Shown: in pieces, positions 3,099 to 17,637 of the stretch
Numbering within the stretch: the first letter of the stretch is position 1
How the letters are laid out: each line of letters starts with the position of its first letter
Assembly: GCA_036522975.1 (NCBI GenBank)
Contig: DATDES010000166.1
Coordinates: forward strand, 1-27,768
Length of the DNA stretch: 27,768 bases
DNA from: Burkholderiaceae bacterium
GTDB taxonomy: Bacteria > Pseudomonadota > Gammaproteobacteria > Burkholderiales > Burkholderiaceae_C
Reading direction: 5' to 3'
Notes under the pieces: model-generated
Databases searched by the model: none
What the model saw: only the letters and a program-made list of their open reading frames with translations
What the model was told of the DNA's origin: nothing
Program-made: the position numbers and the translations under genes

Positions 3099-4706
3099 CT
3101 ACGGCAGTTGTTGGTATTGGGTCGCCAAAGTCTCGAACGACACGCGAGAAGCCTCGGCATCGAAGCCCGCGCCGAGTTCATCGGCCAGGATCGCGGCCAC
3201 GGGCGTGGCCTGGCGCGCGGCTTCGGCGGCGTCGAGAAAGAGCAGGCGTGACCGTCGGGCCAGTACGTCCTCGACGCTGAACGCCATCTCCTGGCGCGCG
3301 GCGAACCGCACCATCGCCTCGCTCAGGCCGCCCTGCCCTGATTCCGCATCGCGCCACAGCCAGCGGCTCGCGCCGGGCAGGCTGCGCACGACGGCGGCCT
3401 CGTCGCCATACAGGTGTTCTCCCGGCGCAGTCGTGATCGAGACGCTGGCTCTCGCGGGCGCCCCCACGAGCGGCAGATGCACCGTGACGCCGCCGGCGCG
3501 GCGCGGCAGCAGGCGACGGTCGAAGCAGCGCTCGAGCACGTCTTCGGCCATCGCGCGGTAGGTGGTCCACTTGCCGCCGGTGACGGTGACCAGGCCCGAA
3601 CGGCCGACCAGCACGGTGTGCTCGCGCGAGATCTGTTTGGTGTCCTCGCTGTCGTCGCCGCTCGGCTTCACCAGCGGACGCAGGCCGACCCACACCGAGC
3701 GCACATCGGCGCGCGTCGGCGACTTCGACAGGTAGCGCGCCGACTCGCGCAGGATGAACTGCACCTCCTCGGCGAACGGTGTCGGCTCGAACACGACGTC
3801 GTCGCGCGGCGTGTCGGTGGTGCCCAGGATTGTCTTGCCCAGCCACGGCACGGCGAAGAGCACGCGGCCGTCCTCGGTCTTTGGCACCAACAGCGCATGC
3901 GAACCGGGCATGAATGCCCGGTCGACCACCAGGTGCACCCCCTGGCTCGGCGCGACGATGCCGGGCTTTGCGGGCGCACCGGCCTCGCGGTCCATGTTAC
4001 GCAGGTCGTCGACCCAGACCCCGGTGGCATTGATCACGCACCGGGCGGCAATGCGCAGCCCGGCACCCCCGATCGCGTCCTGTGCGACAACGCCTGTGAC
4101 CTTGCCGCCGTCGCGCCGCAGCGCGGTGACCGGGCAGTGGTTGAGCACGACGGCGCCCCTGGCCGCCGCAGTGCGGGCCAGGGCCAGGGCTAGGCGCGCG
4201 TCGTCGAACTGGCCGTCCCAGTACTTCACGCCGCCCGACAAGCCGCGGGCCTGCACTGTCGGCAGCAGTTCCCTGGTGCGGGTAGCCGAGAGGAACTCAG
4301 TCGCGCCGAGGCCGCGCGACCCGGCCAGCGCGTCATACATCTTCAGGCCGACGCCGTAGAACGGCGCTTCCCAGAAATGGTAGGCCGGCATCACGAAGGC
4401 CAGCGGCTGCGCCAGGTGCGGCGCGTTGGCTAGCAGGGTGGCACGCTCGTGCAAGGCCTCCCGTACCAGCGACACATTGCCCTGCGCCAGGTAGCGCACC
4501 CCGCCATGCACCAGTTTCGTCGCGCGCGAGCTGGTGCCTTTGGCGAAATCGTCGGCCTCGAGCAGCACGACCGAGAAACCGCGCGCCGCCGCGTCGAGCG
4601 CGACGCCGCAGCCAGTGGCGCCGCCACCGATCACGGCGAGGTCGAACCCGCCCGCGTCCTGCGCCGCCACGAGCGCCTCCGCGCGCGCCGATGCAGCGAG
4701 CGTCAT
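3099..4706 (-). CDS. glpD: FAD-dependent glycerol-3-phosphate dehydrogenase/oxidase
   Basis: DLAVIGGGATG FAD motif, GTSSRATKLVHGGVRYL, DGQFDDARL, WVGLRPL, ISREH, GGKWTTYR. Confidence 0.92.
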   Translation of the reverse strand: MTLAASARAEALVAAQDAGGFDLAVIGGGATGCGVALDAAARGFSVVLLEADDFAKGTSSRATKLVHGGVRYLAQGNVSLVREALHERATLLANAPHLAQPLAFVMPAYHFWEAPFYGVGLKMYDALAGSRGLGATEFLSATRTRELLPTVQARGLSGGVKYWDGQFDDARLALALARTAAARGAVVLNHCPVTALRRDGGKVTGVVAQDAIGGAGLRIAARCVINATGVWVDDLRNMDREAGAPAKPGIVAPSQGVHLVVDRAFMPGSHALLVPKTEDGRVLFAVPWLGKTILGTTDTPRDDVVFEPTPFAEEVQFILRESARYLSKSPTRADVRSVWVGLRPLVKPSGDDSEDTKQISREHTVLVGRSGLVTVTGGKWTTYRAMAEDVLERCFDRRLLPRRAGGVTVHLPLVGAPARASVSITTAPGEHLYGDEAAVVRSLPGASRWLWRDAESGQGGLSEAMVRFAARQEMAFSVEDVLARRSRLLFLDAAEAARQATPVAAILADELGAGFDAEASRVSFETLATQYQQLP

Positions 4707-5269
4707 GTTGTCACCTCCTCGCCCGCCAACAGGGCGAGCTTGTTCATCGTCGCCCAGTTGCGCGTCGTGGCCTGCTCACCAACCACCTTGGCGAACGCCT
4801 GGCTGACGGGGCTGTCGAGCACACCGCTCGCGCACCACAGGTAGGCCGCGTGCGGGACCAGGGCCAGGCCGTCGGGCGCCCAGTCACGCGCACTCAGGTG
4901 TTCGAGCACCCGCCTGTCGAGGCTGGGTGCGAGGATCGCCAGCATCAGCCTGGCGTCATCGTCGGCCAGCGCCCGCAGCGGGTGCGCGGCCAAGAGTTCG
5001 GCCAGGGTGTCGGCGGCCAGCACGAAGACCCGCGCATGGATGCCGAGCTTCTTGTGCAGGGCGGCCTCGATCGCCGACGCCAGGGCTGCCGCTGTGGCAC
5101 GCGGGAGCGCACCGAACACTGCATTGCCGCTGTTGAGCAGGGTCCGCACGTCGGTGTAGCCCAGGCTCTCGAGCAGGCTTCGCAGGTCGGCCATCGCGAT
5201 GCGCTTGGCGCGGCCGACATTGACGCCGCGCAGCAGCGCGATCCAGGTCGGGCGCGGACGACGGGCCAT
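4703..5269 (-). CDS. DUF1697 family protein
   Basis: IALLRGVNVG...MADLR..LESLGYTDVRTLLNSGNAVF signature; ATGA overlap with glpD. Confidence 0.85.
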   Translation of the reverse strand: MARRPRPTWIALLRGVNVGRAKRIAMADLRSLLESLGYTDVRTLLNSGNAVFGALPRATAAALASAIEAALHKKLGIHARVFVLAADTLAELLAAHPLRALADDDARLMLAILAPSLDRRVLEHLSARDWAPDGLALVPHAAYLWCASGVLDSPVSQAFAKVVGEQATTRNWATMNKLALLAGEEVTT

Positions 5270-5281
5270 CGGTGCAGGGCC

Positions 5282-6064
5282 TCAGCTGATCACCGACTGC
5301 TGTGCAATGCCACCGTCGACCAGCACATGCTGGCCCGTCATGCCGTCGCTGTCGTCGGCGGCCAGGAAGAGCGTGGCGCGCGCGACATGGCTCGGGTCGA
5401 GCCTGATCTTCAGGCATTGCGCGTCGAGGAACTCCTTGTCCGCCGCCGGGTCGCGGTGCAAGGTGGTCTGGCGGTCGGTGACGATGGCGCCAGGCACCAG
5501 CGCATTGACGCGGATGTTGCGGGCACCGAGTTCGCGCGCCAGGGTACGCGTCAGGCCGAGGATGCCGGCCTTGGCTGTCGTGTAGCCGACCAGGTTGGGC
5601 CGGCCACGCATCCAGCTCACCGAGCCCATGTTGATCACGCTGCCGCCGCCGGCCTTCGCCATGCCGGGCGTGACGGCCTGGATGGCGAAGAAGTAGTGCT
5701 TCAGGTTGAGCGCGAGGCGGTCGTCCCAGAACGCACTCGTCACCTCTTCCATCTTGTGGCGGTCATCGCGGCCGGCGTTGTTGACGAGCACGCGCACCGG
5801 CCCGAGCTCGCTCTCGACGCGGCCGAGCAAGGCCTGGTAGGCGGTCACGTCGCGCACGTCGCAGGCGCCGTACCAGGGCACCGGGCCGCCGGCCGCGAGC
5901 ACCTCGTCGATCAGGGCATTGCCGCCTTCGGGCTTGGTTCCGCAGAACGCAACCTTCGCGCCCTGTGCCGCGAACGCGCGCACGAGTTCGGCGCCGATGC
6001 CCGAACTGCCGCCGGAGACGAAGACCACACGGTCCGTCAGCGACGCGTAGCGGGTGTAGCTCAT
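5282..6064 (-). CDS. sedA: SDR oxidoreductase, probable sulfoquinovose 1-dehydrogenase
   Basis: SGGSSGIG, NNAGRDDRH, YTTAK; the INMGSVSWMRGRP and LVPGAIxTxRQ segments match my recollection of Pseudomonas putida SQ1 SQ dehydrogenase rather than Caulobacter XylB (SWHLGL); cluster context. Confidence 0.75.
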   Translation of the reverse strand: MSYTRYASLTDRVVFVSGGSSGIGAELVRAFAAQGAKVAFCGTKPEGGNALIDEVLAAGGPVPWYGACDVRDVTAYQALLGRVESELGPVRVLVNNAGRDDRHKMEEVTSAFWDDRLALNLKHYFFAIQAVTPGMAKAGGGSVINMGSVSWMRGRPNLVGYTTAKAGILGLTRTLARELGARNIRVNALVPGAIVTDRQTTLHRDPAADKEFLDAQCLKIRLDPSHVARATLFLAADDSDGMTGQHVLVDGGIAQQSVIS

Positions 6065-6075
6065 GACGGGGCTCC

Positions 6076-6978
6076 CTACAGTTGGGCGATGTGGGCCGGC
6101 AGCCCCGCCACATCGACCCGCAGTTGCAGCACGCGGCCGGCAAGCGGCTCGCGCGCCAATTCGTCGGCCGGGCGCTTCTCGCGCGCGGTCGTGATGTACA
6201 GGGTCTTGAGGTCGGGGCCGCCGAAGCAGGGCATCGTCGGGCAGCGCACCGGCAGCGGTATCTCGCGGCTGAGCGTGCCGTCGGCGCTGAAGCGTAGCAC
6301 GCGCGCGCCCTCGAACATCGCCACCCAGTAGCCACCCTCGACATCGACGGCAGCGCCGTCGGGGCGGCCGCCATAGCGGGCGAGATCCTGCGCCGGGGTC
6401 TTGGGTGGAAACTGCAGGAATGCGCGGCGACGCGACAGGCTGCCGTCGCCGACGTCGAAGTCCAGCGCGTCGACGCGGTGGGCCTTGGTGTCAGCCCAGT
6501 ACATCGTGCGCGCATCGGGGCTCCAGGCCAGGCCGTTGCTGACCGTGATGTCGCCGGCCATCTTGTCGAGCCGGCCCGCGCCGAAGCGGTAGAGCGCGGC
6601 ACGCGGCGGATCGCGCGGCTCGTAGATCGTCCCGACCCAGAAGCGACCCTTCGGGTCGGCCTTGCCGTCGTTGAAGCGCTCATGCGCCGGGTCGTAGGGT
6701 GCCTCGGCAAGGGGGTACGACTTGCCGGACCCGGGGTCGAAGCGCACGAGCCCGTCACGCAGGGCCAGCAGCAGACCACCGTCGTTCAGCGGTGCGCAAC
6801 TGCCAACGTCGGTGTCGAAGGACCACTCGCGGTGCGTGCCGCTGGCCGGATCGAAGCGGTTCAGTGTGTGGCCCGGGATGTCGCACCAGTAGAGCAACTG
6901 CTCGCCCGGGTGCCACAGCGGCGACTCGCCGAGCAGGCTGGGTGGAACGCCAGGCAAGGATTCGATTCGCGCGCTCAC
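6076..6978 (-). CDS. sedB: SMP-30/gluconolactonase family, probable 6-deoxy-6-sulfogluconolactonase
   Basis: LGESPLWH, RFNDGKADPKGRFWVG, SNGLAWSPD, PDGAAVD, PTMPCFGG; GTG start at 6978 overlaps the epimerase TGA (GTGA). Family is certain, substrate is from context. Confidence 0.75.
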   Translation of the reverse strand: MSARIESLPGVPPSLLGESPLWHPGEQLLYWCDIPGHTLNRFDPASGTHREWSFDTDVGSCAPLNDGGLLLALRDGLVRFDPGSGKSYPLAEAPYDPAHERFNDGKADPKGRFWVGTIYEPRDPPRAALYRFGAGRLDKMAGDITVSNGLAWSPDARTMYWADTKAHRVDALDFDVGDGSLSRRRAFLQFPPKTPAQDLARYGGRPDGAAVDVEGGYWVAMFEGARVLRFSADGTLSREIPLPVRCPTMPCFGGPDLKTLYITTAREKRPADELAREPLAGRVLQLRVDVAGLPAHIAQL

Positions 6979-7844
6979 GCTTTGGCGATGTCGATCGTCA
7001 TCCAGGCTTCGAGCGTCTCGCCTGCGGGCAGGCCGACCAAGCCATGCGCGGCCGGGTCGGCCATCTGGATCGCATTGCTGACATGGCTGACCGGCTCGAC
7101 GCAGAAGTAGTCGCGCGACGGCGGCGTGAAGACCACCAGGTAGGGCAGCGATGACGTGAGCTTGAGGGCCAGCTTCTCGTCGCGCAGGTTGGCCGCGCCG
7201 CGCCAGCCTTCGAAGCAGTTGTCGAAGTCGAGGTGGCGCACCTCGCCGTCGATGCTGCCCTGCTGGACACGCCGGGTGGGCAGTTGCGTGCCCGGGTCGG
7301 ATTCCCATCGCTGCGTGCACTCGATGTGCAGGCGGCTGCGAGAGCGCTTCGGGAAATACGGGTGCCAGCCCAGGCCCACCGGCTGGGTGCGCGCGTCGAT
7401 ATTGGTCACCGACAGGCGCAGTGTCAGCGCCTGGTCGCTCAGCTCGATGCTCTGGGTTGCGTCGAAGTTGAAGGGCCAGTGCTCGTTGGCCAGGTGCGTG
7501 GTGGCCAGCTCGGCCTGGGTGGCATTGCTGCCGGCGACGCGCCAGGGGGTCTGCCACACCGTGCCGTGCAGCGAGTGCGGGTTGCCGGCATCGAAGTTCG
7601 GCGCGGTCGTGTGGTCACGGCCGAGCCAGCGGAAATGGCGATAACCGATGCGATTCGAATAGGGCGCCAGCGGGAAGCAGGCCGACGGCCGCGAGGCCAG
7701 CAGTTCGGCCGGCTCGCAGCTGCGCAGGATCGGTGTCGTGTCGTGCCAGAAACCGGCGATGGCGCCGCCCAGGTCGGGGCGCAAGGCCAGGCGCAGCGCG
7801 CCGGCACGAAGTTCGATGGCTGGGGTGCTAGGGACTGCGGTCAT
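6975..7844 (-). CDS. Aldose 1-epimerase family, probable SQ mutarotase
   Basis: FPLAPYSNRI, HSLHG, GLGWHPYF, YFCVEPVSH; GGAG RBS before ATG 7844. Confidence 0.8.
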   Translation of the reverse strand: MTAVPSTPAIELRAGALRLALRPDLGGAIAGFWHDTTPILRSCEPAELLASRPSACFPLAPYSNRIGYRHFRWLGRDHTTAPNFDAGNPHSLHGTVWQTPWRVAGSNATQAELATTHLANEHWPFNFDATQSIELSDQALTLRLSVTNIDARTQPVGLGWHPYFPKRSRSRLHIECTQRWESDPGTQLPTRRVQQGSIDGEVRHLDFDNCFEGWRGAANLRDEKLALKLTSSLPYLVVFTPPSRDYFCVEPVSHVSNAIQMADPAAHGLVGLPAGETLEAWMTIDIAKA

Positions 7845-7913
7845 GGGGCTCCGGGGCGGGTTCGTTGGCGCGCCGGCGATCGCGCGCGTGCGCATCGTAA
7901 GCGCTGCAGCGCC

Positions 7914-9038
7914 TCACCAACAGGCCGGCAGGACTTCGGCAAGCGCCACCACGCGGCCTTCGTCGATGCTCCTGTGCGCAGCCAGGCCAGTGGCCACCGC
8001 CCGCAGGCCCTCGTCGAGCGGTATTTCCGCCGGCAGGCCGTTGCGCAGCGCGTGCGCGAACTTCTGGTGTTCGATGTAGCTCGCGCCGAAGTGCTGGCCC
8101 AGGTACTTGATGTTGGTGTCGCGGATCTGGCGCACGGCGACGCCCTTGGCGGTGCCGGACGGCTGGCCCCAGACCTCGCGCCGGCCCCAGTCCTCGCGGC
8201 GCCCGTAGCGCAACACGCCAGAGGGCAGCAGCGACTCGAGCTTGCCTTCGGCGCCGACGATGGTGACGTGCTCGTTGTCGACCGAGTTCTCCGCGAACAT
8301 GCACAAGTCCAGGCTCGCACGGGCTCCGCTGGGGTACTCGACGATCACGTAGGCACTGTCGAGGATGTCGGGCACTGTTTGACCATCGGGGCCGTCGTAG
8401 CTTTCGTCGAGGTGGTTGACGCGCTGGCCACCCGAGGCGAACACCCGCGCGGGCTTCTCCTTCAGGATGAAGTCCATCAGGTTGAAGTAGTGGCAGCACT
8501 TTTCGACCAGAGTGCCGCCGGTATTGGCATTGAAGCGGTTCCAGTCGCCGACCTTCGGGTAGAAGGGCTCACGGTGCTCGCGGATCGCCACCTGGTGCAG
8601 GCGGCCGACGCCGCCCTCGTGGGCGATGCGGATCATCTCGGCCACCGGCGGCATGTAGCGGTATTCCTGCGCCACCCAGACGATGCCCTTGCGACCTTTG
8701 GCGCGCTCGATCATCTCGACGCCGTCGGCCACGCGCGTGACAAGCGGCTTTTCGCACAGGATGTGCAGGTCGGTCGCCAGCGCGTCGCGCATCACCTCGA
8801 TGTGGGTGAAGTTCGGACTGGCGATCACGAGCGCGTCGCACAGGCCGCTCTTCAGCAGGTCCCTGTGGTTTTCAAAGAGCTGGGCCTTGCCGTCGAGCAG
8901 CGCCGCGGCAGCGTCCCGGCTGGGCAGCGCCGGGTCGGCGATCGCGGTGACCTTGGCACCACCCAAGGCGCGCAGGTTCTCGATGTGCTCGCGGCCCATG
9001 CTGCCGCAGCCGATGATGCCGTAACGAAGCTTGTTCAT
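7914..9038 (-). CDS. sqgA: Gfo/Idh/MocA-fold protein, probable NAD+-dependent sulfoquinovosidase (GH188)
   Basis: GIIGCGSMG and CEKPL; EYRYMPP, IREHREPFYPKV, WNRFNANTGGTLVEKCCH, LDLCMFAE and KYLGQHFGASY match recalled GH188 and plant homologues; located in an SQ cluster lacking a GH31 gene. Confidence 0.8.
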   Translation of the reverse strand: MNKLRYGIIGCGSMGREHIENLRALGGAKVTAIADPALPSRDAAAALLDGKAQLFENHRDLLKSGLCDALVIASPNFTHIEVMRDALATDLHILCEKPLVTRVADGVEMIERAKGRKGIVWVAQEYRYMPPVAEMIRIAHEGGVGRLHQVAIREHREPFYPKVGDWNRFNANTGGTLVEKCCHYFNLMDFILKEKPARVFASGGQRVNHLDESYDGPDGQTVPDILDSAYVIVEYPSGARASLDLCMFAENSVDNEHVTIVGAEGKLESLLPSGVLRYGRREDWGRREVWGQPSGTAKGVAVRQIRDTNIKYLGQHFGASYIEHQKFAHALRNGLPAEIPLDEGLRAVATGLAAHRSIDEGRVVALAEVLPACW

Positions 9039-9045
9039 GCGGGTC

Positions 9046-9876
9046 TCAACCTTTGAGGCCGCCCTGCGTCAAGCCACCGACCACGCGCTCCTGAAAGATC
9101 GCAATCAGCACGGCAATCGGCACGATGGCCACGATCAGGGCGGCCGAGATGATCGGCCAGGGAAAAGTGAACTCGCCCTGGTACAGCGTGATGCCGACCG
9201 GCAGGGTGCGCATCGACGCGCTCGAGTTCAAGGACAAGGCGAGCAGGAATTCGTCCCAGGCATTGACGAAGGCCAGGATGCCGGCCGTGAACACCCCCGG
9301 CGCGGCCAGCGGCACGACCACACGCCACAACGCACCCATGCGTGTGCAGCCATCGATCATCGCAGCGTTCTCGAGGTCCTTGGGGATGCTCTGGAAGAAG
9401 CTCACCAACACCAGGGTGCAGACCGGCAGGTTGAGCACGATGTAGGGCAGCACGAGCGCGGTATAGGTGTTGAGCAGCCCAAGCGCGCGCATGGTCTCGA
9501 AGATCGGCACCAGCAGCGTGACCAGCGGGAACATGCTCGATGCGACGATGCAGGTCAGGATCAGCTGCCGGTGCTTGAGGTTCAGGCGCGCGATCGCGTA
9601 GGCGGCCAGGGCCGAGACCAGCAGCGAGAAGACCGTCGCGCTCAGGGCCACCGCCAGGCTGTTGCCCAGGTACTTGAGCAGGGGCTGGTCGGTGAAGGCC
9701 TGGACGTAATTGGCCAAGGTCGGGTTGTGCGGCCAGTATGTGATGGGCTTGCTGACCAGCTCCGATTCGGTCTTCAGCGAGGTGAGCAGGATCCACACCG
9801 CGGGAAAGAAGCCGTTGATCACGACCAGGCCGGCCGCGATCAGGCGCAGCGACTTGGCATCCCAAAGGCTCCTCAT
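9046..9876 (-). CDS. Carbohydrate ABC transporter permease (MalG-like)
   Basis: Multiple TM helices; SIPKDLENAAMIDG EAA motif; FVNAWDEFL; LPVGI. Confidence 0.92.
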   Translation of the reverse strand: MRSLWDAKSLRLIAAGLVVINGFFPAVWILLTSLKTESELVSKPITYWPHNPTLANYVQAFTDQPLLKYLGNSLAVALSATVFSLLVSALAAYAIARLNLKHRQLILTCIVASSMFPLVTLLVPIFETMRALGLLNTYTALVLPYIVLNLPVCTLVLVSFFQSIPKDLENAAMIDGCTRMGALWRVVVPLAAPGVFTAGILAFVNAWDEFLLALSLNSSASMRTLPVGITLYQGEFTFPWPIISAALIVAIVPIAVLIAIFQERVVGGLTQGGLKG

Positions 9877-9957
9877 GACGACCCCCAAGACGCCTGCGGC
9901 GTCGGCCCCCCGAGGGGGCGCGTTTCGTCTCGAGGCGGCTCGGCGACGAAACTCATG
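9872..9957. repeat. 80-bp triple-hairpin element (copy 2) flanked by a CTCATG direct repeat
   Basis: CTCATG at 9872-9877 and 9952-9957; stems GACGCC-TGC-GGCGTC (9889-9903), GCCCCC-CGA-GGGGGC (9905-9919), GTTTCGTC...GACGAAAC (9922-9952). Confidence 0.8.
9873..9956 (-). other. 27-aa element-derived mini-ORF (MSFVAEPPRDETRPLGGPTPQASWGSS) bridging the two permeases
   Basis: Its ATG overlaps the upstream permease TGA (ATGA at 9956-9953) and its TGA overlaps the downstream permease ATG (ATGA at 9876-9873); translation is untested. Confidence 0.45.
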
Positions 9958-10855
9958 CGTTCTTCCCGATGCGCTTCAAGTAGAACCCGGTCACGAACAG
10001 CGAGAGCACGAACATGCACACCGCGAGCGTGCTGCCGTAACCGACGTCGAGGTAGTCGATCGTGGTCTTGTGGATCAGCATCGCCAGCGTCTCGGTGCTG
10101 TTGCCCGGGCCGCCCTTGGTCATCGTGTACGGGATGTCGAAGGTCTGCAGCGCGGTGATGGTGCGGAAGATCAGCGCGACGATGATCGACGGCATCAGCA
10201 TCGGGATCGTGATCTGCCAGAACTGCTGCCACTTCGACGCGCCGTCGACCTCGGCCGCCTCGTAGAGCGATTTCGGGATCATCTGCAGCCCTGCCAGCAG
10301 GATCAGGGCCATGAAGGAACTGGTCTTCCAGACGATCGTCAGGCAGATCGCCGCGAAGGCCCAGTTCGGCCGCAGCAGCCACATTGCCGGCTCGCTCGGC
10401 GCGGCCACCCGGCGCACCACGTCGTTGACGACACCGTACTCGGTGTGGAAGAACCACGCGAAGATCAGGCCGGCGAATGCCAGCGGCAGCGCCCAGGGCA
10501 GCAGGAGGGCCAGGCGCACCGGCCACTTGCGTTTGAACGGCAGGTTGGCCAGCATCGCCAGGCCCAGGCCGACGACCAGCGCGCCGGGCACGGTGATCAA
10601 GGTGATCAGCACCGTGTTCTTGGTGGCGTTCCAGAAGTCCGGGTCCTTGAGGACGAGCGCGTAGTTCTCGAAGCCGACGAACTTGAAGCCGCCGCCACCC
10701 GACAGGCGCAGGTCGTAGAAGCTGTTCCAGATCAGCTTGGCGATCGGATAGACGACGATCAGCGCCAGCAGCAGGAAGGCCGGCGCGAGCAGCATGACGC
10801 CGAGCGTCTTCTCGCTCGGGTCACGCAGTCGATCGACAGTGCTCGCGCCCGCCAT
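9953..10855 (-). CDS. Carbohydrate ABC transporter permease (MalF-like)
   Basis: LLLAPAFLLL, FVGFENY, LLLPWALP, IPKSLYEAAEVDGA EAA motif, TKGGPG. Confidence 0.92.
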   Translation of the reverse strand: MAGASTVDRLRDPSEKTLGVMLLAPAFLLLALIVVYPIAKLIWNSFYDLRLSGGGGFKFVGFENYALVLKDPDFWNATKNTVLITLITVPGALVVGLGLAMLANLPFKRKWPVRLALLLPWALPLAFAGLIFAWFFHTEYGVVNDVVRRVAAPSEPAMWLLRPNWAFAAICLTIVWKTSSFMALILLAGLQMIPKSLYEAAEVDGASKWQQFWQITIPMLMPSIIVALIFRTITALQTFDIPYTMTKGGPGNSTETLAMLIHKTTIDYLDVGYGSTLAVCMFVLSLFVTGFYLKRIGKNA

Positions 10856-10867
10856 GCCCGCCGCCGC

Positions 10868-12142
10868 TCAGCGCATCACTCGGGTCAGACGCGACTCGAT
10901 CTCGTTCACGCCCTCGGCCGGGGTCTTGGTGCGCGCCAGCACCGCGCTGGTCGTGGTGCGGATGATGTCGCTGACCTGACCGTAGTCCTTGCTCATCGGG
11001 CGGCTCTTGCCGGCAATGACGACATTGGCGGCGTCCTTGAACCAGGGAACCACCTTGGTCACGTCGGCATCGGTGTAGACGCCGGGGTAGGTCGCCAGCA
11101 GCGAGCCTTCGACGGCGAGGAACTTGCTCGACTCGGGGCTGGCCAGGTGCTTGACGAGGTTGGCCGCCGCCTGCTTGTTCTTGCTGAAGGCGCTGACCGC
11201 CCATTGCCAGCCGCCGACGCAAGTCGCGCTCTTGCCGCCGGTCATCGCCGGCAACGGCATCACGCCGACCTTGCCCTTGACCTGCGAATCGGCGTCGTCT
11301 TTGAAACGGTCCCAGGCGAAGCCCCAGTTGATCGCGAACACGACCTGGCCGGCCTTGAATTCGTTGACCGTGTCGGGGGTCTTGACCTCGGCGACATTCT
11401 TCTTGATCACGCCGGCGTCGACCATCGACAGCCACTGCGTCAGCCCCTTGGTTGCCGCACCCTTGTCGAGCGTCATCTTGCCGGCCGGGTCGTTGAAGTC
11501 CTTGCCCTGGCCCCAGTAGGGCAGCAGGAACGTGCAGACGGCGCCCTCGATCGGCGCGCCCTGGATCGACAGGCCTTGCAGGTTGGCATTGCTCTCGGCC
11601 TTCTGGATCTTGGCCGCCGCGGCCGTCAGTTCGTCCCAGGTCTTGGGCTCCGCGACGCCGTACTTGTCGAGCAGGTCCTTGCGGTAGTACATGAACATCG
11701 CATCGGCAAAGGCCGGCATCGCGGCGATCTTGCCGTCGACGACGTTCGACGTCGCATACACCGGCAGGTAGGGCTTCATCACGTCGGCCGGCTTGCCGAT
11801 GTAGGCATCGAGCGGCTCGAGCCAGCCCGCCCCGTAGTACTGCGCCGGGTTGACGATGTCGATCAGGTAGATGTCGATCGCCGGGTCCTTGGCGTTGAGC
11901 ACGGTGCTCAGGTACTGGCGCTGCAGCTCGCTGGTCGCGCCACCGGTCTCGATCTCGACCTTGACGTTGGGGTTCTTGGCCTGGTACTGGTCGAACAGCT
12001 TGCGCATCAGGTCCGGACGCTGGTTGGCGCCGCCGGAGAACACGCGCAGCGTGGTCTGCTGGGCGAAGGAGGTGACGCTGAATCCGACGCCGGCCAGGAA
12101 GGCGGCGAGGGTCAATGTCGTGAGGGATTGGCGGCGCTTCAT
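10868..12142 (-). CDS. smoF: ABC substrate-binding protein, SmoF-like SQ/SQ-glycerol binding protein
   Basis: Sec signal peptide, AAGGAG RBS; ETGGATSELQRQYLSTV, PAFADAMFMYYRKDLLDKYG, IEGAVCTFLLPYW, TCVGGW, SRP and ESRLTRVMR align with recalled Agrobacterium SmoF. Confidence 0.8.
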   Translation of the reverse strand: MKRRQSLTTLTLAAFLAGVGFSVTSFAQQTTLRVFSGGANQRPDLMRKLFDQYQAKNPNVKVEIETGGATSELQRQYLSTVLNAKDPAIDIYLIDIVNPAQYYGAGWLEPLDAYIGKPADVMKPYLPVYATSNVVDGKIAAMPAFADAMFMYYRKDLLDKYGVAEPKTWDELTAAAAKIQKAESNANLQGLSIQGAPIEGAVCTFLLPYWGQGKDFNDPAGKMTLDKGAATKGLTQWLSMVDAGVIKKNVAEVKTPDTVNEFKAGQVVFAINWGFAWDRFKDDADSQVKGKVGVMPLPAMTGGKSATCVGGWQWAVSAFSKNKQAAANLVKHLASPESSKFLAVEGSLLATYPGVYTDADVTKVVPWFKDAANVVIAGKSRPMSKDYGQVSDIIRTTTSAVLARTKTPAEGVNEIESRLTRVMR

Positions 12143-12185
12143 CGTTTGTCTCCTTGGGCTGGGGCTGGGACGGGAAACCCGGGTG

Positions 12186-13259
12186 TCAAAGGGCGGCGCC
12201 GCTGCCGGCGTCGAACAGGTGCAGGTGGCGCGGGTTCATGTGCACGGCCAGGCGCGTGCCGGGCGGGTCGCGAAACGCGGCGTTGCAGCGCGAGACCATC
12301 TCGGCCGCGCCGATCTTCAGCGACACCAGGGTCTCGGCGCCCAGGGGTTCGAGCAGCGAGACCTCGGCCGGCACGGCCAGGTCGCTCTCGCTCTGCCGGG
12401 CGAGCGTGATGTTCTCGGGCCGGATGCCGAACTTGAGCTTGGCCGCTCCGTTGGCGCGCGCCGCCAGCTCGGGCGGCAACGCGATCTCGGTCCCGCCGAG
12501 GTCGGCCCGCCCGCCCCGCAGCGCGCAGTCGGCCAGGTTCATCGGCGGCGCGCCGGTGAAGCCGGCGACGAACACCGCGGCCGGGTGGTTGTAGATGTTG
12601 TCGGGCGTGTCGTACTGCATCTTCCTGCCGGCCGACAGCACCGCAATGCGGTCGGCCATCGTCATCGCCTCGACCTGGTCGTGGGTGACGTAGATGATCG
12701 TCGCGCCCAGGCGCTGGTGCAGACGCTTGATCTCGCTCCTCATCTCGTGGCGCAGTTGGGCATCGAGGTTCGACAGCGGCTCGTCGAACAGGAAGACCTT
12801 GGGCTGGCGCACGATGGCGCGACCGATCGCCACGCGCTGGCGCTGCCCGCCCGACAGCGCGGCAGGCTTGCGCTCGAGCATGTGGTCGATCTTCAGCAGC
12901 TTGGCCGCGTCCATCACGCGGCGCTTGATTTCCGCCTCCTCGGTTCCGCGCAGGCGCAGGCCGAAGGCCATGTTGTCGTACAGGTTCTTGTGTGGGTACA
13001 GCGCATAGTCCTGGAACACCATCGCGATGTCGCGCGCGCGAGGCGGCAGGTCGTTGACGACCTTGCCGTCGATGCAGACGTCGCCGCCGGTGATCGTCTC
13101 CAGGCCGGCGATCATGCGCAGCAGGGTGCTCTTGCCACAGCCCGAGGGCCCGACGAAGACCACGAATTCGCCATGCTGGATCTGCAGGTCGATGCCGTGG
13201 ATGACTTGCGTCTTGCCGTCGTAGCTCTTGACGACGCCCTTGAGGTCGACCGCCGCCAT
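12186..13259 (-). CDS. Carbohydrate ABC transporter ATP-binding subunit (MalK/UgpC-like)
   Basis: GPSGCGKS Walker A, LSGGQRQR signature, FLFDEPLSNLD, YVTHDQ; ATG 13259 overlaps the aldolase TGA. Confidence 0.95.
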   Translation of the reverse strand: MAAVDLKGVVKSYDGKTQVIHGIDLQIQHGEFVVFVGPSGCGKSTLLRMIAGLETITGGDVCIDGKVVNDLPPRARDIAMVFQDYALYPHKNLYDNMAFGLRLRGTEEAEIKRRVMDAAKLLKIDHMLERKPAALSGGQRQRVAIGRAIVRQPKVFLFDEPLSNLDAQLRHEMRSEIKRLHQRLGATIIYVTHDQVEAMTMADRIAVLSAGRKMQYDTPDNIYNHPAAVFVAGFTGAPPMNLADCALRGGRADLGGTEIALPPELAARANGAAKLKFGIRPENITLARQSESDLAVPAEVSLLEPLGAETLVSLKIGAAEMVSRCNAAFRDPPGTRLAVHMNPRHLHLFDAGSGAAL

Positions 13260-14080
13260 CAGTAGGCTCCCGAACCGGTCTGCGTGCCGCCCGCCAAGGT
13301 GTGCACATGGGTTTCGCCGTCGGGCGTGGTGAGCGCTTTCACGGCCGCTTGTGCGCCGCGCATCAGCAGTCCCAGGTCGCTGCCGATGGCCACATAGTCG
13401 AAGCCCATCGCGCGGTACTGGACGACGAGCTCGGGCGTGCCGCCGACGGTGCCCACCGGCATGTCCACCGCCTTGCAGCGGCGCGCCGCGTCGGCCATCA
13501 CGCGCATCACATCGGGATGGGTGGTGTTGCCGGCGTGGCCGAGCGCGGCCGACAGATCGCCGGGGCCGAGGAAGAGGGAATCGACGCCCGGCACCGCGGC
13601 AATCGCTTCGAGTTGCGCCACCGCGGCCGGCGTCTCCAGTTGCAGCACGGCGCCGACGGTCTTGTTGGCCGTCTTGGCGTAATCGGGCACGGTGCCGAAC
13701 TTGGAGCCCCGGCTCATGCCGGCCAGGCCGCGATTGCCTTCGGGCGGGTAGCGCGTGGCGGCCACCGCGCGCCGGGCTTCGTCGGCGTTCTGCACGAAGG
13801 GAATCAACAGGGTGTGCGCGCCGGCATCGAGCACCCGCTTGATGCTGACGGTGTCGTTCCAGGGCACCCGCACGATCGGCACCATTTTCGTATTGCCGGC
13901 CGCCTGCAGCAGATGAATCACCTCCATCATGTCTAGCGGCGTGTGCTCCATGTCGATCACGCCCCACTGGAAACCGGCGTGGCCCATCGCCTCGGTGACG
14001 ATGGGGCTGGCAGCCATGATCCACGTGCCGAGCGGCGCGTGGGATCCGGCGGACTTGAGCAACTGGCGTAGCGGGTTCAT
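13259..14080 (-). CDS. sedD: HpcH/HpaI class II aldolase, probable 2-keto-3,6-dideoxy-6-sulfogluconate (KDSG) aldolase
   Basis: IDMEHTP, VRVPWND, KRVLDAGA, RYPPEGNRG, QLET, FLGPGDLS; GAGG RBS before ATG 14080. Substrate is from context. Confidence 0.75.
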   Translation of the reverse strand: MNPLRQLLKSAGSHAPLGTWIMAASPIVTEAMGHAGFQWGVIDMEHTPLDMMEVIHLLQAAGNTKMVPIVRVPWNDTVSIKRVLDAGAHTLLIPFVQNADEARRAVAATRYPPEGNRGLAGMSRGSKFGTVPDYAKTANKTVGAVLQLETPAAVAQLEAIAAVPGVDSLFLGPGDLSAALGHAGNTTHPDVMRVMADAARRCKAVDMPVGTVGGTPELVVQYRAMGFDYVAIGSDLGLLMRGAQAAVKALTTPDGETHVHTLAGGTQTGSGAY

Positions 14081-14095
14081 GACCGGGTTCCTCAA

Positions 14096-15838
14096 TCAAT
14101 AGATGACCGGCTCGGGTGTACTGGCCGCACCCTGCAGGAAGTCGAAGTCGCAGCCTTCGTGGGCCTGCGTCACGTGTTCGCGGTACAGGCGCACGAAGCC
14201 GCGGCTCTGAGGTGCGGCCGGCGCCCTCCACGCGGCGCGACGGCGCGCCAGTTCGCCGTCGGCAACATGCAGGTGGACGCGCCGGGCCTCGATGTCGATC
14301 TCGATCTCGTCGCCGCTGCGCACGCACGCCAGGGGCCCGCCGACCGCGCTCTCGGGGCTGACGTGGAGGATGCAGGTGCCGTAGTGGGTGCCGCTCATGC
14401 GCGCGTCTGAGATGCGCACCATGTCGCGCACCCCTAGCGCGAGCAGTTTCTTCGGGATCGGCAGGCCGCCCCATTCGGGCATGCCCGGGGCGCCGACCGG
14501 ACCGGCGTTGCGCAGGACGAGCACTGTGTTCTCGTCGCAGGCGAGGTTCGGGTCGGCACAGGCCCGGTTCATGTCGGCCGGGTCATCGAACACGAGCGCG
14601 GTGCCCCGGTGCTTGAAGAACTTCGGGCTGGCTGCACTGGCTTTCATTACCGCGCCCTCGGGTGCGAGGTTGCCGCGCAGCACGGCCAGCGCGCCACCGG
14701 GACTGACCGGCCGGTCGAGCGGGCGGATCACTTCGTCGTCGAGCACCGCCACGCCCTCCAGGTTATCGCCGAGGGTGCGGCCGTTGACGCAACGCTCGCC
14801 CAGCGACAGCTGCGCCCTGATCCGGGTCATCAGCGCCGGCAGGCCGCCGGCGTAGTGAAAGTCTTCCATCAGCCGGTCGCCGCTCGGGAACAGGTTGGCC
14901 AGAACCGGTACCTTGCGGCCGACGGCATCGAGGTCGTCGAGCGTGAGTTCGACGCCGGCGCGGCGCGCCATCGCGATGATGTGCACCGCGGCATTGGTCG
15001 AACCGCCCAGGGCCATTTGGACCGCTGCGGCGTTCAGGAACGCGCCGCGGGTCAGGATCGATTGCGGCGTCAAGTCGTCCCAGACCATCTGGACAACGCG
15101 CTCGCCGCAGGTGGTGGCCATGCGCACATGGCCGGCATCCATGGCCGGGATCGCGGTCGAGCCGGGCAGTGCCAGGCCGAGCGCTTCGACGATCGAGGTC
15201 ATCGTGCTCGCGGTGCCCATCGTGTTGCAGGTGCCCGGGCTGCGGGTCATGTGCGCTTCGAGTTCGATCCATTCGGCCTCGCTGACCTTGCCGGCCTGGT
15301 ACTCGTCCCAGAACAGGCGCGTGTGGGTGCCAGCGCCTACTTTGCGCTCGGCTTGTCCGGGCTTGAGGTAGCGGTCGTTCAGCATCGGCCCGGCCGCGCA
15401 GAAGATCGTCGGCAGGCCCATGCTGATCGCACCCATCAGGGTGCCCGGCGTGGTCTTGTCGCAGCCGGCGAGCAGCACGACCCCGTCGATCGGCAGCGAG
15501 CGCAACAGCTCCTCGACTTCCATCGCCAGGAAGTTGCGATAGAGCATCGTGGTCGGCTTCACCATCACCTCGCCCAGGCTCATCGCCGGCAGCTCAAACG
15601 GCAAGCCGCCGGCCATCAGCACCCCGCGCTTGACCGCTTCGGCGCGCTCGCGCAGGTGGGCGTGGCAGGGTGACAGCTCGCTCCAGGTGTTGACGATCGC
15701 AATGCACGGCTTTTCGAGCACATCCTCGCGCCGCAGGCCCATCTGCTGGGCGCGCTGGCGGTGCGCGAAGGCACGCATGTCACGCGCGGCAAACCAGCGC
15801 CGGCTGCGCAGATCGGCGAGCGTCTTCAGGCGGCTCAT
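14096..15838 (-). CDS. sedC: IlvD/Edd-family Fe-S dehydratase, probable 6-deoxy-6-sulfogluconate dehydratase
   Basis: NTWSELSPCH, GCDKTT, GTCNTMGTAST, GGSTN; RAFAHRQR, GEVMVKPTT, GAGTHT and RMSGTHYG match the recalled P. putida SQ1 SG dehydratase. Confidence 0.78.
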   Translation of the reverse strand: MSRLKTLADLRSRRWFAARDMRAFAHRQRAQQMGLRREDVLEKPCIAIVNTWSELSPCHAHLRERAEAVKRGVLMAGGLPFELPAMSLGEVMVKPTTMLYRNFLAMEVEELLRSLPIDGVVLLAGCDKTTPGTLMGAISMGLPTIFCAAGPMLNDRYLKPGQAERKVGAGTHTRLFWDEYQAGKVSEAEWIELEAHMTRSPGTCNTMGTASTMTSIVEALGLALPGSTAIPAMDAGHVRMATTCGERVVQMVWDDLTPQSILTRGAFLNAAAVQMALGGSTNAAVHIIAMARRAGVELTLDDLDAVGRKVPVLANLFPSGDRLMEDFHYAGGLPALMTRIRAQLSLGERCVNGRTLGDNLEGVAVLDDEVIRPLDRPVSPGGALAVLRGNLAPEGAVMKASAASPKFFKHRGTALVFDDPADMNRACADPNLACDENTVLVLRNAGPVGAPGMPEWGGLPIPKKLLALGVRDMVRISDARMSGTHYGTCILHVSPESAVGGPLACVRSGDEIEIDIEARRVHLHVADGELARRRAAWRAPAAPQSRGFVRLYREHVTQAHEGCDFDFLQGAASTPEPVIY

Positions 15839-15874
15839 CGGCAGGGGAGGGATTTCGAGGATCGCATCGGCTGG

Positions 15875-15888
15875 TGTTACCGCTAACA
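15875..15888. promoter_or_regulatory. Palindromic LacI/GntR-type operator TGTTA-CCGC-TAACA in the divergent promoter region
   Basis: Matches the ATGTTA-N4-TAACAT consensus of the LacI-family gluconate repressor GntR; 37 bp upstream of the dehydratase ATG and 41 bp upstream of the regulator ATG. Confidence 0.75.
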
Positions 15889-15929
15889 TTAATGGGTGAG
15901 CGACCTCGCTACCACCCGAGCAAACCCGA

Positions 15930-17021
15930 ATGCCCCCGTCGAATCCCTTGCCCGCCCGTGCCGCGCCACGTCAGCCACGCCGCGGTCACGGCCGAGCCAC
16001 CTTGGCCGACGTGGCCGCCGCCGCCGGCGTCACCGCGATCACCGTTTCGCGTTACCTGCGCGAGCCGCACCGCGTCGCGCCGGCCACCGCCAGCGCCATC
16101 GCCGCCGCTTTGCAGCAGACCGGCTACCTGCCCAACAAGCAGGCCGGCGTGCTGGCCAGCGCCGCCAAGGCAGCGCCGGGCGGCGCTCGGATGGTCGCGG
16201 CCCTGATCCCGAGCATCGCCAATTCGATCTTTGCCGAGACCGTGCAGGGTCTGGCCGATGCGCTGCAAGGATCAGGGTGTGAGTTGTTACTCGCTTCGAC
16301 GGGCTACTCGGTCGATCGCGAAGAGGAACAGTTGCGCGCGCTGCTTGGCTGGTTCCCGAGCGCCCTGGTGGTTACCGGCCGGCGCCACACGCCCGGCGCA
16401 CTGGCCCTGTTGCGCCAGGCGCGATCGCGCGGGACGCCGGTGATCGAGATCTGGGACCATCACCCCGAGCCTGGCGCGGAAAGCTTCACCCAAATCGGGT
16501 TCGACCACGAACAGATCGGCCGCGCGATGGCCGAGCACCTGATCCAGCGCGGGCACCGCTCCCTGGCCTATGTCGACAGCGGCGTGGCCGAGGACTTTCG
16601 GGCTCACGAACGCGGCGACGGCTTCCTGGCTGCCGCCAAGCGCCGTCGCATCCCGGCGCGGCGCTTGACGGCGCCGGCCGGCGAAGCCATCGAGGCCGGG
16701 CGCCTCGCCCTTGCCGGCCTGCTCGATCCAAAAGGCCGCCTGACCGTGCGTGCCGCCGCCTTCGCCAATGACCACCTGGCCTGCGGCGCGCTGCTCGAAG
16801 CGCGGCAGCGCGGCCTGGCGCTGCCGCAGGACCTGGCATTGCTGGGCTTCGGCGACTTCAGCCTCGGCCGCCAACTCGACCCACCACTGTCCACCGTGCA
16901 CACGCCGCGCTTCGAAATCGGCCAGGCGGCGGCGCGCGCGCTGCTGCAGGCCCTGCACAGCGGCCAGGCCGCCGCCGATCAACGCCTGCCCTGGACCCTG
17001 ATCGCCCGTGGCAGCAGCTGA
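15930..17021 (+). CDS. LacI-family transcriptional regulator (GntR/IdnR-like), probable repressor of the SQ operon
   Basis: HTH TLADVAAAAGVTAITVSRYL, GYLPNKQAGVLAS, IPSIANSIFAETVQG, PVIEIWD, LLGFGD, PPLSTV. Confidence 0.9.
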   Translation: MPPSNPLPARAAPRQPRRGHGRATLADVAAAAGVTAITVSRYLREPHRVAPATASAIAAALQQTGYLPNKQAGVLASAAKAAPGGARMVAALIPSIANSIFAETVQGLADALQGSGCELLLASTGYSVDREEEQLRALLGWFPSALVVTGRRHTPGALALLRQARSRGTPVIEIWDHHPEPGAESFTQIGFDHEQIGRAMAEHLIQRGHRSLAYVDSGVAEDFRAHERGDGFLAAAKRRRIPARRLTAPAGEAIEAGRLALAGLLDPKGRLTVRAAAFANDHLACGALLEARQRGLALPQDLALLGFGDFSLGRQLDPPLSTVHTPRFEIGQAAARALLQALHSGQAAADQRLPWTLIARGSS

Positions 17022-17637
17022 AGCCGTCGCCGCCGCGGGCACCGGCTTCGCCCTCGGCGCGACCCTGATCATCGCCATCGGCGCCCAGAACGCCTTCGTG
17101 CTGCGCCAGGGCCTGCGGCGCGAGCATGTCGGCACCGTCGTCGCCTTCTGCGCCGCTGCCGATGCGCTGCTGATGACCCTCGGCGTGCTCGGCGCCGGCC
17201 GCGCGCTGACCGCGGCCCCGCAACTGGCGCGCTGGATGGCCGCGGCCGGCGCCCTGTTCCTGCTGCTCTATGGCCTGCGGGCCCTGCACCGCGCGTGGCG
17301 CCCCGCGTTCCTCGTCGCCGCCAGCCGGGATGGCCGCATGACGCGACGGGCCGCACTGGCGCAGGCGGCCGCCTTCACCCTGCTCAACCCGCACGTTTAC
17401 CTCGACACGGTGATGCTGGTCGGCGCGGTCGGCGCGCAGCAGAGCGTAGCAGTGCGCCCGGCCTTCCTGGTCGGCGCCTGCGCGGCCAGTGCGCTGTGGT
17501 TCGGTGGCCTGGGCTACGGCGCGCGCTGGCTCGCACCCTGGTTCGCGCAGCCCGCGGCGTGGCGCTGGCTCGACACGGTGGTTGGCCTGACGATGTTGCT
17601 GCTCGCCGCCGTGCTGGCGCGACACGCGCTGGCCTGA
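17008..17637 (+). CDS. LysE/ArgO-family amino acid exporter
   Basis: IAIGAQNAFVLRQG, TLLNPHVYLDTV, hydrophobic helices; the only candidate start is a GTG inside the regulator 3' end. Confidence 0.85.
   Translation: MAAAEAVAAAGTGFALGATLIIAIGAQNAFVLRQGLRREHVGTVVAFCAAADALLMTLGVLGAGRALTAAPQLARWMAAAGALFLLLYGLRALHRAWRPAFLVAASRDGRMTRRAALAQAAAFTLLNPHVYLDTVMLVGAVGAQQSVAVRPAFLVGACAASALWFGGLGYGARWLAPWFAQPAAWRWLDTVVGLTMLLLAAVLARHALA

Follow-up and report, generated by a model that had tools for sequence, protein, structure and literature searches.

A sulfoquinovose cluster of the sulfo-Entner–Doudoroff type in Burkholderiales without a clustered sulfolactaldehyde dehydrogenase, reductase or TauE-type exporter

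[quoted passage not shown] This belongs to the prevailing two-tier picture, in which primary degraders excrete sulfolactate or 2,3-dihydroxypropane-1-sulfonate (DHPS), which other bacteria desulfonate. In the sulfofucose pathway of Paracoccus wurundjeri no GabD/SlaB homologue is present, and the in-cluster candidate for 3-sulfolactaldehyde (SLA) oxidation was inactive (PMC12421959). A survey of the glycoside hydrolase family GH188 lists sulfo-ED clusters that contain SqgA, with no discussion of the fate of SLA (PMC10755693). Here we analyzed a cluster of this kind on a 27,768-nucleotide stretch (the window), which is contig C166 of a metagenome-assembled genome of the Burkholderiaceae (G000; 1.97 Mb, 263 contigs, 78% complete). 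An earlier note on this DNA had read it as a sulfo-ED cluster with neither an SLA enzyme nor a TauE-type exporter, and had suggested a new pathway variant.

Identity of the cluster and the genes it lacks

On sequence grounds, the locus is a genuine SQ-glycerol/sulfo-ED cluster, as the earlier note had held. Among solved proteins, SqgA, SmoF and the SQ dehydrogenase of Pseudomonas putida (PpSQDH) are far closer to three cluster proteins than any others, and the sulfonate-binding arginines of the SQ dehydrogenase (SQDH) are kept. When the Gfo/Idh/MocA protein was compared with the PDB, FlSqgA (8qc2/8qc8, E-value 8e-96) and ArSqgA (8qc3/5/6, 2.5e-95) were found, and the next match, which is unrelated, reached only 1.6e-23. 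The catalytic and sulfonate-binding residues of these enzymes are listed in ArSqgA numbering (PMC10755693, JACS 2023). The motifs EYRYMPP, EHR..F..K, CCH.F and G.H.G, in which the Tyr, Arg, Lys and His residues lie, align with those of FlSqgA. For the solute-binding protein (SBP), the second-best PDB match had an E-value of 2e-58, versus 5.7e-135 for SmoF (7nbz). Residues S148, R153, R155, Y161, K165, D100 and R102 in this cluster's short-chain dehydrogenase/reductase (SDR) correspond to S147, R152, R154, Y160, K164, D99 and R101 of PpSQDH. The first five have the same spacing as in PpSQDH and were invariant in 49/49 tblastn matches among related loci; the window SDR carries both the catalytic tetrad and counterparts of the sulfonate-binding Arg152/Arg154 of PpSQDH. 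A lactonase, an IlvD/EDD dehydratase and an HpcH/HpaI aldolase are encoded in one operon with it, as judged from family and gene order.

No GH31 gene was found in the genome, and the dehydratase scores above the cut-off of the L-arabinonate dehydratase equivalog in NCBIfam (894.3 vs 882 bits). These two results could suggest an ordinary non-phosphorylative pentose (Dahms-type) pathway, for which no SLA enzyme would be expected. The gene families are identical to those of pentose oxidative pathways, and the best NCBIfam match of the SDR is D-xylose 1-dehydrogenase (below cut-off). However, the margins by which three SQ-specific solved proteins are the best relatives of cluster proteins span tens of orders of magnitude, SQDH keeps its sulfonate-binding residues and a sulfolactate lyase module recurrently adjoins the cluster (see below). 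The PDB matches to SqgA, SmoF and PpSQDH virtually rule out a pentose pathway. There is an annotation trap here: with a dehydratase that passes the L-arabinonate model, SQ clusters would be named pentose operons by automatic annotation, and surveys may miss them.

Genome-wide family searches agreed with the earlier note that the window has no aldehyde dehydrogenase (ALDH, PF00171), no YihU-type reductase (NAD_binding_2, PF03446) and no TauE gene (PF01925); all matches to these families were on other contigs, those of PF01925 only on C242 and C156. Both ends of the operon can be seen, as had also been stated, with a LacI-type operator at the 5' end and a convergent AhpC gene at the 3' end. The same cluster, again with no ALDH and no TauE gene, was found on six long contigs of the genus between DsbD/AhpC and histidine kinase/pyrF, with no extra gene. 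Since the layout recurs on these six contigs, the absence of ALDH and TauE is not an assembly accident. Neither a GabD-type SLA dehydrogenase nor a YihU-type reductase is clustered with the sulfo-ED genes on C166 or at the six syntenic loci.

SqgA was present in 23/24 genus genomes searched. When species-representative genomes were scanned, the organism was seen to belong to an uncultured Burkholderiales genus, and 80 loci were collected with a LacI gene divergent from the architecture dehydratase-aldolase-[ABC]-SqgA-[mutarotase-lactonase]-SDR, in Roseateles, Rubrivivax, Piscinibacter, Pelomonas, Methylibium, Polaromonas, Rhodoferax, Variovorax, Cupriavidus and others. The layout is kept across the genus and more than 10 other Burkholderiales genera. 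A Pfam census was made of 122 flanking open reading frames (ORFs) from 30 loci outside the genus. ALDH (Aldedh) was found within 5.5 kb in only 3 of the 30 loci, and neither TauE nor NAD_binding_2 belonged to the 25 commonest families, all of which were matched by at least 2 of these flanking ORFs. In ten related loci, the genes downstream of the cluster were regulators, ABC transporter parts, GH31 or SuyB, with no ALDH among them. This lack of ALDH, reductase and TauE genes is shared by the clade as a whole.

Some loci depart from the common architecture. At the syntenic site of two 100% complete genus genomes, only aldolase-mutarotase-lactonase-GlpD are found (L036, G001:C133, 1154-5521; L037, G043:C56, 8749-13298). 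The dehydratase, SQ dehydrogenase, SqgA, ABC transporter and LacI genes are missing there, and the loci are either a cut-down remnant or a different small pathway. Six genus loci (L013, L014, L054-L056 and L075) have the sulfo-ED enzymes and SqgA and no clustered ABC importer genes. In a Candidatus Rhodoferax (L109, 16895-21725), a GH31 glycosidase follows a cluster that also has SqgA (GH188). The two sulfoquinovosidase families are reported to be distributed in a complementary way, and this locus is an exception.

The SuyAB/ComC module and the sulfolactaldehyde step

In locus L081, the SQ dehydrogenase gene is directly followed by a 117-aa ORF with no Pfam match and by a UxaA-type (GD_AH) protein. 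The latter consists of Pfam GD_AH_second and GD_AH_C with no N-terminal domain, and the pair has the SuyA/SuyB layout. Two genomes of the genus, G017 and G004, carry orthologues (about 90% identity to the SuyB of L081). A search of G000 for suyAB, as the earlier note had proposed, found SuyA/SuyB at C120:3-1014; the contig end truncates this SuyB, which shares 87.5% identity with that of L081 and 95% with that of G004. In relatives, the module is a GntR gene divergent from SuyA-SuyB-D-2-hydroxyacid dehydrogenase (2-Hacid_dh)-Ldh_2, with the split SuyA/SuyB subunits beside an Ldh_2-type, putative (R)-sulfolactate dehydrogenase and a second putative sulfolactate dehydrogenase. The ComC orthologue of G000 is at C54:5788-6588, also at a contig end, which fits an assembly gap to C120 of about 1.6 kb as estimated from the lengths of the missing genes. 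Close homologues are named (2R)-sulfolactate sulfo-lyase beta and (2R)-3-sulfolactate dehydrogenase, which are automatic names from JGI and one NCBI record. The best PDB match of SuyB was only galactarate dehydratase (E-value 2.5e-37). In at least 11 of the 80 related loci, SuyA/SuyB genes adjoin the sulfo-ED cluster; a few further loci have other genes of the module next to it. No gene separates the sulfo-ED and SuyAB modules in L093 and L100, and these two loci have no ALDH.

The D-2-hydroxyacid dehydrogenase is similar to phosphoglycerate dehydrogenase (PGDH). As sulfolactate is the sulfonate analogue of 3-phosphoglycerate, the enzyme would fit the role of (S)-sulfolactate dehydrogenase. 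Together with ComC, it would provide the (R)-sulfolactate required by SuyAB (PMC12421959, PMC9594981 and the 2026 review). Sulfolactate is probably desulfonated and cleaved to pyruvate and sulfite inside the cell and not exported, and the cleavage by the unlinked SuyAB/ComC module would explain why there is no exporter in the cluster. We consider the exporter half of the puzzle largely settled by this module. The two TauE genes of G000, together with a SorA-type molybdoenzyme encoded in the same genome, could deal with sulfite; both TauE genes lie in unrelated contexts (YeeE/ThiF, EVE and GGDEF). Xsc is absent from G000, where the best match scored 160 bits against a cut-off of 676 bits.

The space upstream of suyA differs among the genomes. 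In G000 (C120:1014-1272), only 258 bp lie between suyA and a LOG-like gene of the Lysine_decarbox family, and in G004 and G017 a GntR/UTRA regulator is found there. The best GntR homologue in G000 has only 42% identity, and the SuyAB regulator appears to have been deleted.

The earlier note had named, as one of several options, that the C3-sulfonate step is encoded elsewhere. For sulfolactate cleavage this is supported by the genes on C120 and C54. For the preceding step, no dedicated SLA dehydrogenase or reductase gene was found in the 78%-complete assembly. The ALDHs of G000 are a PuuC-like protein, ExaC, PhnY and a split methylmalonate-semialdehyde dehydrogenase (MMSDH), and they were rejected as SLA dehydrogenases because none is GabD-type or SLA dehydrogenase-like. 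One of them (G000:C18:898-2340) is above the cut-off for phosphonoacetaldehyde dehydrogenase (PhnY; 867 vs 636 bits), which suggests 2-aminoethylphosphonate catabolism in this organism. As for the beta-hydroxyacid dehydrogenases, one is Gnd, and the other two are unspecific and below every NCBIfam cut-off; at about 125-150 bits to YihU (cut-off 348 bits) and in unrelated contexts, they were not assigned as SLA reductases. In Roseateles agri, a beta-hydroxyacid dehydrogenase is encoded next to LacI, but it passes the tartronate semialdehyde reductase cut-off and is a mere neighbour.

Relatives offer more candidates. In L068, a GabD-type ALDH gene follows the SDR gene, and orthologues with 76-80% identity are present in only about 6-8 of 30 genus genomes, G000 not being among them. 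Most genus genomes encode an ALDH whose best PDB match is the alpha-ketoglutaric semialdehyde dehydrogenase (KGSADH) of A. brasilense (E-value 6e-242) and which also matches the SLA dehydrogenase of R. leguminosarum (8c54, 5e-106); this ALDH was not found in the G000 assembly. All five cultured relatives tested have one to four unlinked GabD-type ALDHs above the cut-off for succinate-semialdehyde dehydrogenase (SSADH). SLA is most likely oxidized to sulfolactate by an unlinked ALDH of broad specificity.

Three proteins encoded in or beside the cluster, DUF1697, GlpD and LysE, had been put forward as possibly handling SLA, and this was not borne out for any of them. DUF1697 is absent from 6/6 syntenic genus clusters, and the genus has only unlinked paralogues of it, with at most 46% identity, in 10/29 genomes. 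It is a lineage-specific insertion seen only in the cluster of this genome and, as it is conserved in no relative's cluster, it was rejected as a pathway enzyme. LysE is closest to lysine and arginine exporters, with scores below their cut-offs. It is beside the cluster only in part of the genus and in none of the other genera, and is probably outside the pathway.

The GlpD-like protein (305.6 bits) is below the 360-bit equivalog cut-off, but it has the DAO + DAO_C architecture and the GlpD/GlpO motifs GTSSR..KLVHGG.RYL, GLRPL and GGK.T.YR. We take these to be substrate or active-site motifs, and they are conserved with the best PDB matches, which are GlpD/GlpO (3da1, 2rgh and 2qcu). It is the sole GlpD homologue in G000, where glpK is on C69. 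Orthologues are present in 28/29 genus genomes, including the 100%-complete G001 and G043 that have no SqgA. In Polaromonas and Piscinibacter, the orthologue follows the SDR gene and ends the cluster, and the SQ cluster of Cupriavidus sp. TMH.W2 has glpK (750 bits, above cut-off), a GlpD-like gene (54% identity) and a GabD-type ALDH gene beside it. In the simplest reading, GlpD would serve the glycerol aglycone of SQ-glycerol. A role as an oxidase of DHPS, SLA or sulfolactate is unsupported, as the protein is the sole GlpD, is kept in SqgA-less relatives, has intact motifs and occurs with glpK in Cupriavidus.

Taken together, the results point to a model in which an upper SQ operon is combined with unlinked SuyAB/ComC desulfonation, an unlinked ALDH and GlpD for glycerol, and we consider this model fairly probable. 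LacI would control the operon for upper SQ catabolism. SQ-glycerol would be brought in by the SmoF-type ABC system and split by SqgA (GH188) into SQ and glycerol, the latter passing through the unlinked GlpK and then GlpD. Mutarotase, SQ dehydrogenase, lactonase, dehydratase and aldolase would convert SQ to pyruvate and SLA. SLA would then be oxidized to sulfolactate by the unlinked broad-specificity ALDH, and (S)-sulfolactate would be converted through sulfopyruvate to (R)-sulfolactate by the D-2-hydroxyacid dehydrogenase and the ComC-type (R)-sulfolactate dehydrogenase. Finally, SuyA-SuyB would cleave (R)-sulfolactate to pyruvate and sulfite. The sequences show which proteins are SQ-specific, that the cluster is free of ALDH, reductase and TauE genes throughout the clade, and that the SuyAB module is present and repeatedly adjacent; the flux through SuyAB, the role of GlpD and the choice of the SLA-oxidizing enzyme are inferred.

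Several results weigh against this model. The G000 assembly has no ALDH of either the GabD or the KGSADH type, and the GabD-type ALDH, found in only about 6-8 of 30 genus genomes, is missing from G001, G009 and G043, which are 97-100% complete. The SuyB assignment was made from automatic names and layout, and NCBIfam has no SuyB model. As the SqgA-less G001 also has SuyAB, imported sulfolactate could be the only substrate that the module serves. G000 lacks the GntR regulator beside SuyA, and the operator of the cluster occurs nowhere else, which leaves no visible sign of co-regulation for any unlinked gene. The analogous step of P. wurundjeri was not assignable, its in-cluster candidate being inactive, and a 'housekeeping ALDH' is an assumption there too (PMC12421959).

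Other enzymes for the SLA step were also considered. An HpsN-type DHPS-3-dehydrogenase might take SLA directly, or after its reduction to DHPS and racemisation, and feed SuyAB. The second half-reaction of HpsN oxidizes SLA to sulfolactate, and many genus genomes have a second histidinol-dehydrogenase paralogue, which is 6-12 kb from SuyAB in G017, G004, G023, G003 and G044. The G004 copy matches HpsN of C. pinatubonensis (PDB 8v35) over its full length (E-value 1.3e-230) and is followed by an SDR gene, and an HpsN fragment flanks the SQ cluster in Cupriavidus L126. Nevertheless, we regard this DHPS branch as unlikely. The G000 assembly has no HpsN orthologue and only HisD (36% identity), no SLA reductase could be assigned to either of the two beta-hydroxyacid dehydrogenases, and the dedicated racemase pair for sulfolactate argues for an (S)-sulfolactate intermediate. 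In addition, HpsN is specific for (R)-DHPS and SQ gives the S series (PMC9594981 and the 2026 review). The HpsN loci of the genus (L135, G004:C12, 13113-19899; G017:C17:497266-498486) point to a capacity for DHPS degradation in relatives; the G004 copy lies in a LacI-type/ABC-transporter unit with the SDR gene next to it.

The abutting modules of L093 and L100, the ALDH-free neighbourhoods of 27/30 clusters outside the genus and the equally unassigned step in P. wurundjeri, with no GabD/SlaB homologues, would also agree with a non-ALDH SLA dehydrogenase among the conserved module proteins, namely the PGDH-like D-2-hydroxyacid dehydrogenase, or the SQ dehydrogenase if it acts on the hydrate of the aldehyde. 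However, all of the cultured relatives carry unlinked GabD-type ALDHs, and the extra window proteins DUF1697 and LysE are not conserved. Neither the SDR family of SQ dehydrogenase nor the D-2-hydroxyacid dehydrogenase family is known for the oxidation of aldehydes to acids, and we find this proposal very doubtful. Excretion of the C3 sulfonate was the remaining possibility: a housekeeping enzyme would make DHPS or sulfolactate, which would leave through LysE or an unlinked TauE, and SuyAB would act on external sulfolactate. The lysE and lacI genes overlap at the end of the latter and have the operator region in common, two TauE genes exist (C242 and C156), SqgA-less G001 has SuyAB, and TctA of a tripartite tricarboxylate (uptake-type) transporter lies inside the SuyAB module of G017. 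In contrast, LysE is nearest to lysine/arginine exporters and does not accompany the cluster outside the genus, the TauE genes adjoin unrelated genes, and the SuyAB module is found physically joined to the SQ cluster time and again, which argues for internal use; excretion is therefore improbable. We thus keep to the model of intracellular cleavage by SuyAB with an unlinked ALDH. It is rather unlikely, though worth naming, that the Burkholderiales system of sulfo-ED, sulfolactate racemase and SuyAB oxidizes SLA with an enzyme other than GabD/SlaB (the KGSADH-like ALDH, HpsN or a module dehydrogenase). If so, it could be the same enzyme that is missing from the Paracoccus sulfofucose pathway.

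Operator and gene layout

The divergent LacI and dehydratase genes are separated by a perfect palindrome, TGTTACCGCTAACA (pattern TGTTA-N4-TAACA, 15875-15888), which was matched once in the window vs 0 matches in 100 shuffles. The pattern is unique in G000. Among the other genus genomes, one operator site per cluster copy was found in 21/29, and none was found for the reversed control pattern; in genomes with known cluster coordinates, the operator sits at the cluster. A second site, for which the earlier note had suggested a search, could have been a route to an unlinked SLA enzyme, but none was found beyond the cluster copies in G000 or the genus. A site with 3 mismatches (TGTGGCCGCTGACA, G000:C69:4744-4757) lies about 40-60 nt upstream of glpK. 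It is probably there by chance, as G000 has 14 such 3-mismatch sites. Two operator sites were found in each of G006 (C23 and C30) and G002 (C193 and C557), and G006 also has two SqgA copies. This reflects either a duplication of the cluster or a mixture of two strains in the bins.

The window DNA has about 69% G+C, and most of its long ORFs are therefore shadows. Real genes were picked by codon-position GC analysis together with Pfam and NCBIfam scans (Table 1). The cluster is a single minus-strand operon from about 15838 down to 3099, in the order dehydratase, aldolase, ATPase, SBP, two permeases, Gfo/Idh/MocA protein, epimerase, lactonase, SDR, DUF1697 and GlpD-like protein. The LacI and LysE genes are on the plus strand, divergent from it. 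The cluster lies among housekeeping genes: DsbD and AhpC/TSA are found at one end, with a hybrid histidine kinase, pyrF, purB, upp and metX/metW at the other; a tetratricopeptide repeat (TPR) protein is also among the flanking genes. For the dehydratase, residue 20 of the long ORF is the first to align with the NCBIfam profile and the operator overlaps the first codons of that ORF, so the start is probably the ATG at 15838 rather than 15889. The operator is then about 40 nt upstream of the gene. A promoter and terminator scan gave nothing above chance.

Table 1 Features of the SQ cluster in the window
Feature	Position	Strand	Evidence
Putative GlpD-type FAD-dependent glycerol-3-phosphate dehydrogenase, last operon gene	3099..4706	-	Pfam DAO + DAO_C; NCBIfam GlpD 305.6 bits
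DUF1697 protein, between SQ dehydrogenase and GlpD genes	4703..5269	-	Pfam PF08002, E 5e-34
SQ 1-dehydrogenase (SDR)	5282..6064	-	best PDB match P. putida SQDH 9gwu, E 1.9e-80
Putative sulfogluconolactone lactonase (SMP-30/gluconolactonase family)	6076..~7005, start codon uncertain	-	Pfam SGL, E 4e-82; syntenic in relatives
Aldose 1-epimerase, putative SQ mutarotase	6975..7895	-	Pfam Aldose_epim, E 1e-34
GH188 NAD+-dependent sulfoquinovosidase SqgA (Gfo/Idh/MocA)	7914..9038	-	PDB matches to FlSqgA/ArSqgA
ABC permeases (two)	9046-9888 and 9953-10855	-	Pfam BPD_transp_1
Putative SmoF-type SQ-glycerol binding protein (SBP)	10868..12142	-	PDB 7nbz SmoF, E 5.7e-135
MalK-type ABC ATPase	12186..13259	-	Pfam ABC_tran, OB_MalK, TOBE_2 in frame; codon-position GC profile
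HpcH/HpaI class II aldolase, putatively acting on 2-keto-3,6-dideoxy-6-sulfogluconate (KDSG) to give pyruvate + SLA	13259..14095	-	Pfam HpcH_HpaI, E 4e-39; NCBIfam GarL/HpaI-like below cut-offs
IlvD/EDD dehydratase, putative sulfogluconate dehydratase	14096..15838 (longest ORF to 15889)	-	Pfam ILVD_EDD_N/C
LacI-type palindromic operator TGTTACCGCTAACA	15875..15888	between divergent operons	pattern search
LacI-family regulator	15930..17021	+	Pfam LacI + Peripla_BP_3
LysE/ArgO-type exporter, overlaps lacI end	17008..17637	+	Pfam LysE; NCBIfam L-lysine exporter 179 bits vs 213.65 cut-off

Comparison with described pathways

The suggestion of a new pathway variant held only in part. SuyAB, an extension of a known kind, probably accounts for the missing exporter, and the gap left by the missing SLA dehydrogenase has already been published (PMC12421959). 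The dehydrogenase half of the puzzle is a real gap, already recognised for the ED-type sulfosugar pathway. No published description of sulfo-ED joined to SuyAB for SQ in Burkholderiales was found, within a limited coverage of the literature that is not proof of absence. The loci suggest that SQ-glycerol can be taken to pyruvate, dihydroxyacetone phosphate (DHAP) and sulfite within one cell by many Burkholderiales of soil and freshwater, among them cultured strains of Roseateles, Rubrivivax, Piscinibacter and Pelomonas, and that this route would run with a sulfo-ED module that has no SLA dehydrogenase of its own. They also provide a large comparative data set in cultivable organisms for the question of which enzyme oxidizes SLA in SuyAB-coupled ED-type sulfosugar pathways.

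The cluster resembles the sulfo-ED cluster of P. putida SQ1 (Felux et al. 2015; SQDH PMC12133307) in its SDR-type SQDH with the Arg152/Arg154 pocket, SGL lactonase, IlvD/EDD dehydratase, HpcH aldolase and mutarotase. Unlike P. putida SQ1, it has no clustered GabD-type SLA dehydrogenase or TauE-type exporter but does have an ABC importer and GlpD, and GH188 SqgA replaces GH31. P. putida excretes sulfolactate, whereas SuyAB is encoded elsewhere in this genome. SqgA in place of GH31 in a sulfo-ED cluster is also seen in the GH188 SQ clusters (Kaur et al. 2023, PMC10755693), and the SBP is a close relative of SmoF from the Agrobacterium sulfo-SMO pathway, but here the SmoF-type importer is joined to sulfo-ED enzymes. 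Variation at the SLA step is shared with the Vibrio sulfo-ED variant that ends in DHPS (PMC13372026), although no SLA reductase is clustered here. As in the extended sulfo-TAL clusters with SuyAB of Thermotogae and Chloroflexi (PMC9594981), sulfoglycolysis is joined to a downstream C3-sulfonate enzyme; here, the SuyAB extension is on sulfo-ED and in Burkholderiales. P. wurundjeri (PMC12421959) likewise combines an ED-type sulfosugar route to pyruvate and SLA with a sulfolactate racemase and SuyAB (SlcC/ComC-SuyAB) in one organism. It differs from the present system in that the substrate here is SQ or SQ-glycerol and not sulfofucose, the modules are unlinked in this genome, the host is betaproteobacterial and a PGDH-like D-2-hydroxyacid dehydrogenase takes the position of SlcC.

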